64,000 nucleotides of DNA, from positions 2,143 to 66,142 of the forward strand of contig JAFUQP010000002.1 in assembly GCA_017472305.1 (NCBI GenBank), written 5' to 3'. The DNA comes from Clostridia bacterium (GTDB lineage: Bacteria > Bacillota > Clostridia > Oscillospirales > CAG-272). Below, piece after piece: positions 33,491-33,914 of this stretch (within the stretch, counting starts at the first letter, position 1; the number at the start of each line of letters is the position of its first letter). Made by a program: the position numbers and the translations under genes. A model generated the notes under the pieces. That model saw only the letters and a program-made list of their open reading frames with translations. It ran no database searches and was not told the origin of the DNA.

Positions 33491-33620
33491 AGTATTTACC
33501 TCGTAAAATAATATTCAATGCTTATCAAAGACTAATCAAAGACGGCACCGAAAGCAAAAAACAGACCCGAAAGCTGCCGTCGGAGCAGCGCCCCGACACG
33601 GTGAACAGATTAATTCAAAT

Positions 33621-33666
33621 AAAAAAACCGCATACCCCTTATGCCCTGAAGCAAAAGCGAATGCGG
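33621..33666 (-). terminator. Attenuator terminator in the DAHP synthase leader
   Basis: On the - strand: CCGCAT...(inner GCATA aGGGG TATGC)...ATGCGG followed by TTTTTTT, about 130 nt before the DAHP synthase ATG. Confidence 0.5.
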
Positions 33667-33688
33667 ACTGTCCGTTTTTCGTTCCGAG

Positions 33689-33766
33689 TCAAGCTCTGGA
33701 ATTCACAGAAGACGGGCAGCCCTTGGCAAAATAATAAAAGTAATAAAAGAACTTATTTGCTCTCAT
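33689..33766 (-). CDS. Phe/Tyr-rich leader peptide, 25 codons
   Basis: My own translation gives MRANKFFYYFYYFAKGCPSSVNSRA. AAAGGAG lies 9 nt upstream, and the ORF starts about 30 nt downstream of a consensus promoter. Confidence 0.6.
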   Translation of the reverse strand: MRANKFFYYFYYFAKGCPSSVNSRA

Positions 33767-33797
33767 TGCTGCACGCTCCTTTTCTTTGATGTCATTA

Positions 33798-33826
33798 ATT
33801 ATACTCCCAAAGCCCCCGATTGTCAA
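33798..33826 (-). promoter_or_regulatory. Consensus promoter of the DAHP synthase leader
   Basis: On the - strand: TTGACA, 17 nt, TATAAT. Confidence 0.65.
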
Positions 33827-33914
33827 GAGCATTTCGGAAATTTTTGAAAAATTGTTCTATTAGCCACGTTTTCTTGAGTAGTCCAATCTCACAGCCCAAA
33901 AGATGCAGTAGTTT

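Follow-up and report, generated by a model that had tools for sequence, protein, structure and literature searches.

Gene content and leader features of the locus

The window analysed here (the whole stretch of 64,000 nucleotides) carries on its minus strand a DAHP synthase gene, whose product matched NF009395 with 351 bits (cutoff 343) and TIGR00034 aroFGH with 263 (cutoff 173). A terminator-like hairpin is located 3' of the gene (32262-32225), and the following features were located at the gene and in the region 5' of it.

32462..33490, minus strand: type I-alpha (AroF/G/H-like) DAHP synthase gene, 342 aa, monocistronic, ATG at 33490; the regulated gene in our model
33491..33620, minus strand: 130-nt spacer from the attenuator to the DAHP synthase start, containing GC-rich hairpins and lying outside the conserved element
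33621..33627, minus strand: U7 tract of the leader terminator, directly 3' of the hairpin
33628..33666, minus strand: predicted terminator hairpin with imperfect upper stem, CCGCAU (33666-33661) pairing with AUGCGG (33633-33628)
33665..33675, minus strand: R2, ACGGACAGUCC, 3' strand of P1, with its last bases GUCC (33668-33665) common to the terminator stem base
33682..33701, minus strand: inner hairpin of P1, the apical loop of which holds the leader stop UGA (33691-33689)
33689..33766, minus strand: leader ORF of 25 codons plus stop, ATG at 33766, TGA at 33691-33689, peptide MRANKFFYYFYYFAKGCPSSVNSRA, with homologues in 27 other elements
33712..33722, minus strand: R1, GGGCUGCCCGU, 5' strand of the predicted antiterminator hairpin P1, inside the leader ORF (codons K-G-C-P-S)
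33728..33751, minus strand: Phe/Tyr run FFYYFYYF, leader codons 6-13, all Phe/Tyr; the proposed sensing codons
33768..33772, minus strand: GCAGC of the spacer between SD and AUG, able to pair with GCUGC of R1; candidate strand of helix P0 and possible anti-antiterminator
33776..33782, minus strand: SD sequence AAAGGAG of the leader ORF, 9 nt 5' of its ATG
33798..33826, minus strand: sigma-70-type promoter, TTGACA (33826-33821), 17-nt spacer, TATAAT (33803-33798)

The promoter, AAAGGAG, the 25-codon ORF with eight Phe/Tyr codons, the complementary segments, the U7 run and the DAHP synthase ATG had been named in the original prediction, and all lie on the minus strand exactly where it had placed them. 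The leader promoter scored 12/12 in a consensus scan and was the sole perfect match in 32000-36000, and homologous loci have TTGAC..TATAAT promoters at the equivalent relative position. A six-frame scan of the 64-kb window found one other short ORF with at least 6 of 8 aromatic residues, a TTG-start ORF at 61854-61994. The leader arrangement exceeds chance, since an aromatic-run ORF is rare in the window and the whole arrangement recurs elsewhere. The pairing of CUGCCCGU (33719-33712) with ACGGACAG (33675-33668) extends to R1 (33722-33712) with R2 (33675-33665), and GUCC at the end of R2 has dual complementarity, to R1 or to the terminator stem base. The whole leader did not fold significantly more stably than its shuffles (z = -1.0 to -1.3), so that overall stability is no evidence here and the evidence is comparative.

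A second hairpin-rich stretch (33500-33600) had also been listed among the parts of the device; it is present, but is species-specific, falls outside the device, and has no counterpart in any other species' locus. The fold of the spacer 33491-33620 was unremarkable (z = -0.87), and the distance from terminator to ATG is only 23-55 nt in most homologues. We considered the spacer as a degenerate second copy of the attenuator and rejected this, as it has no similarity to any other locus. Elsewhere in the window, the Trp T-box that had been assigned to trpB was recovered as RF00230 at 53703-53925, directly before that gene, and is the window's only T-box.

Searches for known RNA families and further copies

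At the gathering threshold, an Rfam search of the whole window placed no leader, T-box or riboswitch at the attenuator region, and relaxing the threshold to E up to 10 over 33300-34100 gave just three chance-level matches to unrelated models. The Phe_leader, leu/phe leader, Trp, His, Leu and Thr leader and T-box RF00230 models did not match the attenuator, and literature searches found no Clostridia Phe/Tyr leader. We conclude that the element is a new, undescribed RNA family of the known ribosome-mediated attenuator kind.

A covariance model of the element, run against 81 sources (503 kb), gave only 15 elements that were already known. Its weak match at 52054-52125 of the window is an ordinary bidirectional terminator and a match at 2180-2280 of L004 is promoter or terminator DNA; both were rejected. 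We also scanned metagenomes with a pattern that specified the RNA only (R1...R2) and placed no constraint on the peptide. The scan returned 12 low-GC loci, all with an F/Y-run ORF; about 90% of its loci were dropped as high-GC chance matches, all of which had no aromatic ORF. L176 was left out because its contig is truncated or chimeric, and L201-L203, strain-level copies of the window locus, have identical leaders and hence hold no information on covariation. In most of L013-L080 the DAHP synthase gene lies in a long aro operon that exceeds the 2.5-kb flank, so that absence of the element is assessable in only about 27 loci and L013-L080 were dropped as negatives; 20 of these more distant DAHP synthase loci had no Rfam element either.

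Conservation of the element

Including the window, the arrangement was seen in 28 elements, no two of them identical, from genomes and metagenomes of the Acutalibacteraceae/Oscillospiraceae type. These elements are phylogenetically close, so that the counts given below are not independent. The aromatic run, its reading frame, the RBS and the U-tract are clearly conserved in these relatives, a check that the original prediction had proposed. An F/Y-run leader ORF is located upstream of orthologous DAHP synthase genes in L001-L004, L006-L012 and L015, the element precedes a tyrA-DAHPS-pheA operon in L005, and in L129 it precedes genes for an acyl-CoA ligase and the alpha and beta subunits of indolepyruvate ferredoxin oxidoreductase. 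Downstream genes include those for DAHP synthase, CM-PDT, prephenate dehydrogenase and aroB, and the element is without exception immediately 5' of aromatic amino acid genes.

Each leader ORF is preceded by (A)AGGAGG. F (3-6) and Y (2-6) both occur in the leader peptides of all 28 elements and W in none, the F/Y runs are 5-8 codons long, and a peptide motif NK-[FY]n-xKGCP is conserved. Codon choice for F/Y in the leaders leans to UUU/UAU relative to the downstream DAHP synthase genes, the UUU:UUC ratio being 100:20 in the leaders versus 40:59 in the adjacent genes. The element is often duplicated in tandem, and the tandem classes have differing peptide tails (...FVKSE versus ...QIEFKR) with the RNA helices retained.

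Among the RNA segments, R1 (GGGCUGCCCG) is invariant or nearly invariant across the alignments, the last aromatic codon begins exactly 8 nt 5' of R1 in 28/28 elements, and the R1:R2 pairing holds in 96% of alignment cells. Deletions of 1 nt in L003 and L008 alter the peptide tail and keep the R1:R2 pairing; from these frame-shifting deletions, R1 appears to be under selection at the RNA level. The GUCC:R1 pairing is present in 96-100% of sequences, and 25-28 of the 28 allow GUCC to pair with the terminator's 3' base; at least 25 elements can make both pairings. The overlap of antiterminator and terminator is 2-5 nt (2 nt in the window, 4-5 nt in other elements), which is unusually short. The inner hairpin of P1 was found in all 28 elements though its sequence diverges (mean z = -2.1 against dinucleotide shuffles), and in about 20 of them the apical loop of P1 contains or adjoins the leader stop codon. 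In the terminator helix, 9 pairs show compensatory changes over the 28 elements, a count reached by at most 1 of 500 shuffles, and nearly every homologue has a U-rich tract after the hairpin. Since R1 and R2 are almost invariant, changes in P1 are one-sided only and the key helix has no true covariation.

Modelled ribosome-dependent switch

The original prediction had called for a terminator and an alternative pairing on folding. Both were found, and the balance between them depended on the modelled position of the ribosome. When ribosome masks were moved along the leader, the structure flipped as the A site went from 14 to 11 nt away from R1: with the A site at least 14 nt upstream of R1, the equilibrium probability that the CC of GUCC is in the terminator was 0.06 in the window (mean 0.45-0.55 across elements), and with the A site at most 11 nt from R1, or further downstream, it was 0.97-0.99. 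A modelled stall on all but the last two aromatic codons thus favours P1, and a ribosome over R1 or at the stop codon gives the complete terminator. With the 5' end of R1 blocked, most elements gain 4-5 bases in the terminator stem and the window element gains 2. For a stall on the last two aromatic codons, termination is predicted to be favoured, which counts against the model. In many elements P1 and the full terminator differ little in energy (mean difference -1.4 kcal/mol), 8/28 elements favour the full terminator even with R1 free, and at equilibrium many elements switch only about two-fold.

Further, we looked for a classical 2:3 antiterminator by folding the 28 elements with R1 masked and the 3' arm of the terminator absent. 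Only trivial local 4-bp hairpins appeared, none of them conserved, and no conserved helix engaged the 5' arm of the terminator with R1 masked in these elements. The F/Y run belongs to no conserved helix. Of the pheL/trpL-type architecture proposed originally, leader-peptide attenuation is supported, but the device is not of the classical 1:2 / 2:3 / 3:4 form, and the pairing between the two complementary segments described above is the only conserved competitor of the terminator.

Proposed mechanism

We propose, with a probability of roughly 75%, that the element is a ribosome-mediated (leader-peptide) transcription attenuator which regulates DAHP synthase in response to the availability of charged tRNA-Phe and tRNA-Tyr. 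Most likely, it allows these gut Clostridia to induce the first enzyme of the aromatic amino acid pathway upon shortage of Phe or Tyr. In this model, the strong constitutive promoter would initiate a leader RNA of about 170 nt and a ribosome would initiate on the leader ORF. When Phe-tRNA or Tyr-tRNA is scarce, the ribosome would stall within the first six codons of FFYYFYYF, which lie at least 14 nt upstream of R1, so that R1 would stay free, pair with R2 and close the long hairpin P1. P1 would capture GUCC, otherwise the bottom of the terminator stem beside the U-tract; the terminator would then be shorter and no longer abut the U-tract, and RNA polymerase would run on into the DAHP synthase gene. 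When both amino acids are plentiful, the ribosome would pass R1 and pause at the stop codon in the loop of P1, P1 would be blocked, GUCC would join the terminator stem, and transcription would stop at U7. The model implies that the leader ORF is probably translated, that the predicted hairpin and U-tract presumably terminate transcription, and that the loss of 2-5 bp at the stem base may suffice to prevent termination.

Alternative explanations

A four-segment variant refines rather than contradicts the leader-peptide attenuator model. In this variant the SD-spacer segment (GGAGGCAGY) would pair with R1 (P0) as an anti-antiterminator and termination would be the default without a ribosome; a ribosome stalled between the SD-spacer and R1 would block P0, and R1 would form P1. 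The SD/spacer-R1 duplex is predicted at -12.4 kcal/mol in the window and at -9 to -17 kcal/mol in 21/23 single or promoter-proximal copies, most of which beat most shuffles, these fractions not being probabilities because the sequences are related. The unconstrained MFE folds of L002, L003, L004, L007, L008, L009 and L011 pair the SD/spacer with R1 and then form the full terminator, a C-to-U change of R1 in L006 occurs together with the spacer GGACG in place of GGCAG, and GGCAGU of L011 matches ACUGCC. However, none of the five tandem pairs has the pairing in its second copy (-2 to -5 kcal/mol), it is weak in L005 and L006, GGAGG is required as SD in any case, and the invariance of R1 makes a covariation test of P0 impossible. 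We consider this variant possible but rather doubtful; where P0 forms, it would enforce termination without an engaged ribosome.

Control of P1 and the terminator by a trans-acting factor (a TRAP/PyrR-like RNA-binding protein or a small-molecule ligand), with the F/Y ORF incidental or secondary, would account for the near invariance in nucleotides of R1, R2 and the terminator junction, as expected of a binding site, and the 2-5-nt overlap resembles TRAP-regulated leaders, in which the protein adds beyond structure competition (PMC3064811). Yet 28/28 elements retain a strong SD and start codon and an unbroken in-frame F/Y run, with synonymous and F/Y-exchanging variation, a protein or ligand site needs neither the run nor the fixed 8-nt spacing, Rfam gave no match to a riboswitch or protein-binding leader, and no candidate regulator gene was linked in the loci examined, which makes this explanation improbable. 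We give still less credit to a functional aromatic-rich micropeptide, or a terminated leader acting as a small RNA, with the hairpin and U-tract as a leaky unregulated terminator. The very strong promoter would suit either product and the conserved NK-[FY]n-xKGCP motif would suit the peptide, but KGCP conservation is explained at the RNA level, as L003 and L008 change frame and keep R1:R2; the RNA helices persist where the tails of the tandem classes differ; and the constant position immediately 5' of aromatic amino acid genes argues against both products.

Significance

Amino acid control in Clostridia is usually credited to T-boxes, riboswitches or proteins, and the host organisms here are gut and rumen bacteria that have not been cultured and are represented mainly by MAGs. 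Read as a leader-peptide attenuator, the element adds a well-supported case of amino acid biosynthesis controlled in Clostridia by translation-coupled attenuation. It marks genes for aromatic amino acid starvation, and ties the acyl-CoA ligase and indolepyruvate ferredoxin oxidoreductase operon to the supply of Phe and Tyr. Its compact form (4-5-nt overlap, tandem copies) offers a simple natural system for minimal structural competition controlling an intrinsic terminator, and the element could be a portable Phe/Tyr-responsive part for anaerobes.

A wider proposal, which we hold tentatively and at somewhat less than even odds, is that these elements form an RNA family specific to one lineage, the Oscillospirales of gut and rumen, with the ribosome in the role that TRAP has in Bacillus. 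It would be a three-part attenuator, with sensing codons, an antiterminator hairpin holding the rest of the ORF and its stop, and a terminator that has only 4-5 nt in common with this hairpin. Phe and Tyr would be read jointly, the frequent tandem arrays would possibly give multiplicative control, and the small regulon would include the shikimate entry step as well as the route to aromatic amino acids by reductive carboxylation (acyl-CoA ligase plus indolepyruvate ferredoxin oxidoreductase).

Comparison with known systems

The Lactococcus leu/phe leader (Rfam) is a Firmicutes leader-peptide attenuator and bmrB-bmrCD is an antibiotic-responsive leader in Firmicutes. Ribosome-mediated transcription attenuation occurs in this phylum, so its principle is not foreign there. 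The original prediction had called a leader-peptide attenuator unusual in Firmicutes; such attenuators are indeed rare, but not unprecedented, as His-leader attenuators have been predicted in the Bacillus cereus group, Peptostreptococcaceae and Erysipelotrichales (PMC9413887). The element differs from these His leaders, from the Lactococcus leader and from bmrB-bmrCD in the amino acid or signal and in the regulated genes.

Like E. coli pheL-pheA, trpL and hisL, the element has a short ORF close to the promoter in which codons for pathway end products form a run, a predicted intrinsic terminator before the structural gene and a stop codon in the loop of the upstream hairpin, and here, as there, the ribosome position would choose between alternative RNA structures. 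Unlike the E. coli leaders, with which it has no sequence or covariance-model similarity, it has its regulatory codons upstream of the switching helix and not inside it, it has no separate 2:3 antiterminator, the 1:2-equivalent hairpin itself competing with the terminator, it would read Phe and Tyr in one run, and its host is a Clostridia lineage. The overlap of 2-5 nt also differs from the 6-11 nt of classical leader-peptide attenuators (PMC3064811).

In Corynebacterium glutamicum, the aroR leader (Phe-Tyr-Phe) precedes the DAHP synthase gene aroF (Neshat et al. 2014, as summarised in PMC11802643), and AroR reportedly responds to Phe and not to Tyr. The likeness is that of a Phe/Tyr-codon leader peptide which governs, or in our model would govern, transcription of a DAHP synthase operon through ribosome stalling, and is a functional analogy only. 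AroR has a Phe-Tyr-Phe triplet and belongs to Actinobacteria; the elements described here have runs of 5-8 codons with at least 2 Tyr.

In the B. subtilis trp leader, the antiterminator and terminator overlap by 3 nt (CCC), and this short overlap alone does not fully control termination (PMC3064811). As there, our element has a large predicted antiterminator directly 5' of the terminator with few stem-base bases in common, and disrupting the 5' part of the antiterminator would free the common bases to complete the terminator; the disrupting agent is TRAP in B. subtilis, whereas a translating ribosome is proposed here.

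The leader of the DAHP synthase gene

A leader upstream of the DAHP synthase (DAHPS) gene is probably a Phe/Tyr-sensing ribosome-mediated attenuator (probability about 0.75), which supports the interpretation of the original prediction, and the promoter, SD, ORF, pairings, U7 and DAHPS gene that it had listed were all found where it had placed them:

33826-33821 and 33803-33798, - strand: promoter, TTGACA, 17 nt, TATAAT (score 12/12; sole perfect match within 32000-36000)
33782-33776, - strand: SD AAAGGAG, by sequence
33772-33768, - strand: spacer GCAGC, complementary to R1
33766 (ATG) to 33691-33689 (TGA), - strand: leader ORF of 25 codons, by sequence, product MRANKFFYYFYYFAKGCPSSVNSRA
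33722-33712, - strand: R1, GGGCUGCCCGU, complementary to R2
33675-33665, - strand: R2, ACGGACAGUCC, complementary to R1
33666-33661 and 33633-33628, - strand: terminator stem, CCGCAU pairing with AUGCGG, then U7
33627-33621, - strand: U7, directly after the terminator hairpin
33490, - strand: ORF start of type I-alpha (AroF/G/H-like) DAHP synthase (NF009395 and TIGR00034, each above cutoff)

Codons 6-13 of the leader ORF are Phe or Tyr throughout. The DAHPS gene is monocistronic, flanked on one side by a serpin gene, which has a separate terminator (33949-33923), and on the other by a terminator at 32262-32225. The serpin gene (34046-35362, - strand) precedes the leader promoter, and its product is a bacterial serpin of 438 aa (PF00079, E = 2.9e-85) with a signal or lipoprotein-like segment at its N-terminus. 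The attenuator is separated from the DAHPS start by a 130 nt spacer (33491-33620, - strand) with GC-rich hairpins (GUCGGGGCGCUGCUCCGAC; GACGGCA...UGCCGUC), present in none of the other species' loci and retained with 2-4 SNPs in the conspecific strain copies L201-L203; the hairpin stretch at 33500-33600, originally counted as part of the device, is thus species-specific and lies outside it. No Rfam family matched the leader and its whole-leader folding energy was unexceptional (z about -1), and therefore the case rests on comparative evidence.

Conservation of the leader

We compared 80 loci from species-representative genomes (DAHPS identity 68-85%), almost all of them MAGs labelled Acutalibacteraceae, Oscillospiraceae or Clostridia, and found the leader device in the 13 with the closest DAHPS (L001-L012 and L015). 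A metagenome scan with an RNA-only pattern of two segments (GGCTGCCCG N30-60 CGGNNNGTCCGCAT) returned 120 stretches; an F/Y-run ORF with SD and start codon stood just upstream in 12/12 low-GC loci and in none of the high-GC matches. The SD, start codon and F/Y run are kept by relatives in 13 genome and 12 low-GC metagenome loci, and genome loci and scan together gave 28 non-identical elements. An identical leader, from the same species as the window, occurs in several ENA metagenome assemblies. In one conspecific strain (L202:760-1060) some 350 nt are inserted upstream of the promoter; the insert contains many repeats of GCGATAT / ATATCGC, is by appearance a small repeat or mobile element, and leaves the leader unchanged.

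Each of the 28 leader peptides contains 3-6 Phe, 2-6 Tyr and no Trp; interruptions of the run are rare (S, N, C), each one base away from F/Y codons, and the last aromatic codon starts exactly 8 nt 5' of R1 in 28/28. Phe codons in the leaders are UUU 100 vs UUC 20, whereas the adjacent DAHPS genes have UUC 59 vs UUU 40; for Tyr the counts are UAU 64 vs UAC 42 in the leaders and UAC 140 vs UAU 112 in the genes. One-base deletions within R1 in L003 (GGCUG) and L008 (CCG) alter the frame and the peptide tail yet keep R1:R2 pairing, and therefore the conserved 'KGCP' is, from these sequences, a constraint on the RNA rather than on the peptide. Just 3' of R1, UGUGA (33704-33708, - strand) is conserved in most homologues; its UGA lies in the leader +1 frame, where it would stop ribosomes slipping on the U-rich F/Y run, and is the real leader stop codon in L004 and the frame-shifted L003.

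RNA structure and proposed switch

R1 and R2 are predicted to close a long interrupted hairpin, P1, the proposed antiterminator. Its outer helix is paired in 96% of alignment cells, the near invariance of both strands allowing only one-sided changes, and its inner hairpin is present in every element despite differing sequence (mean z -2.1 against dinucleotide shuffles; 24/28 below -1). In about 20/28 elements the apical loop of P1 contains the leader stop codon or directly adjoins it. The terminator stem has 9 pairs with compensatory changes, a count reached by at most 1/500 column shuffles. GUCC, the 3' end of R2 (33668-33665), has two alternative partners: GGGC of R1, in 96-100% of sequences, and the GGRY preceding the U-tract, in 25-28/28. 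Folding with R1 masked and the terminator 3' arm left out, in search of a classical 2:3 antiterminator, gave no conserved helix, and in our models P1 is the sole conserved competitor of the terminator.

With the ribosome modelled as an RNA mask (A site plus 13 nt), folding changed sharply with ribosome position. With the A site at least 14 nt upstream of R1 (6/8 aromatic codons in the window), full P1 was modelled with GUCC held there; with it at most 11 nt from R1, at any later position or on the stop codon, the modelled terminator included GUCC. The probability of finding CC of GUCC within the terminator stem was 0.06 with R1 free and 0.99 with R1 covered in the window, and about 0.5 and 0.97 as means of the 28 elements; with R1 covered the terminator has 4-5 more paired bases in most elements and 2 more in the window. 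In the proposed reading, a shortage of Phe or Tyr would stall the ribosome early in the F/Y run, leaving R1 unoccupied, so that P1 would form and the terminator stem, truncated and parted from the U-tract, would permit readthrough; with both amino acids sufficient, the ribosome would pass R1 and rest on the stop codon within the loop of P1, and the complete terminator would form. We consider this specific P1/GUCC switch somewhat better than an even bet. Its main weakness is the short overlap, which alone may control termination only partly (PMC3064811), and the near iso-energetic states of P1 and the full terminator (mean -1.4 kcal/mol favouring P1) agree with this.

A fourth element, P0, is a candidate: the SD-AUG spacer GGAGGCAGY is complementary to R1 in 21/23 single or promoter-proximal copies (-9 to -17 kcal/mol), weakly in L005 and L006. 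Such a helix could impose termination on leaders without an engaged ribosome; given the invariance of R1 and the relatedness of the sequences, we offer this as a hypothesis.

Regulated genes and distribution

The element precedes DAHPS alone in the window; in several metagenome loci it precedes DAHPS followed by chorismate mutase-prephenate dehydratase (CM-PDT) and aroB, and in L005 the downstream order is prephenate dehydrogenase (tyrA), DAHPS, CM-PDT (pheA). In locus L129 (1088-5460, - strand) the place of DAHPS behind the leader (MIFNNKFYYYYYYFEKGCPSFVKNEI) is taken by a gene of the acyl-CoA ligase family, followed by the genes for the alpha and beta subunits of indolepyruvate ferredoxin oxidoreductase (TIGR03336 714, cutoff 651; NF005325 288, cutoff 230), which suggests that Phe/Tyr starvation induces an aryl-acid reductive-carboxylation route. 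At least four loci carry a complete tandem duplication of leader and terminator upstream of DAHPS (L010:2119-2470; L082:1500-1905; L109:4155-4460, - strand; L178:6840-7215), and L138 and L172, with partial copies at locus 5' ends, are probable tandems. First copies have the peptide tail ...GCPxFVKSE and an SD-spacer complementary to R1; second copies end in ...GCPQIEFKR or HxYxFK and lack this complementarity.

A covariance model of the 28 elements found nothing more in the rest of the window or in the other 66 genome loci, of which absence is assessable in only about 27 because most DAHPS sit in a longer aro operon starting beyond the fetched flank. One weak, spurious match came from a bidirectional intrinsic terminator (52088-52127; AAAAAATCCGCTTTGTCGAAAGGCAAAGCGGATTTTTT) between convergent genes. 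The predicted Trp T-box was confirmed (RF00230, 53703-53925, + strand, 108.6 bits), with trpB (TIGR00263, 511 bits; 53929-55197, + strand) immediately following; the genome therefore appears to control the Trp branch through a T-box and entry into the common pathway through a leader peptide.

Comparison with known attenuators

Leader-peptide attenuation is established in Proteobacteria (pheL, trpL, hisL). The element shares the attenuation logic of pheL/trpL, as originally proposed, but its topology differs, the four-segment arrangement falling with the 2:3 antiterminator. Such control is also less unusual in Firmicutes than had been claimed, since leader-peptide attenuators are predicted there for histidine (PMC9413887). 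In Corynebacterium glutamicum, the DAHP synthase gene aroF is under the control of a Phe-Tyr-Phe leader, aroR (PMC11802643). Our literature searches turned up no Phe/Tyr leader from Clostridia, and no Rfam model matches; we therefore regard the element as an attenuator of known kind that constitutes a new RNA family. In topology it comes close to the B. subtilis trp leader, whose large antiterminator has only three bases in common with the terminator, whereas the overlap in classical leader-peptide attenuators is 6-11 nt (PMC3064811). Sensing codons that precede the switch helix, an overlap of 2-5 nt, a stop codon within the antiterminator loop and tandem arrays, if experimentally confirmed, would mark the element as a distinct variant.
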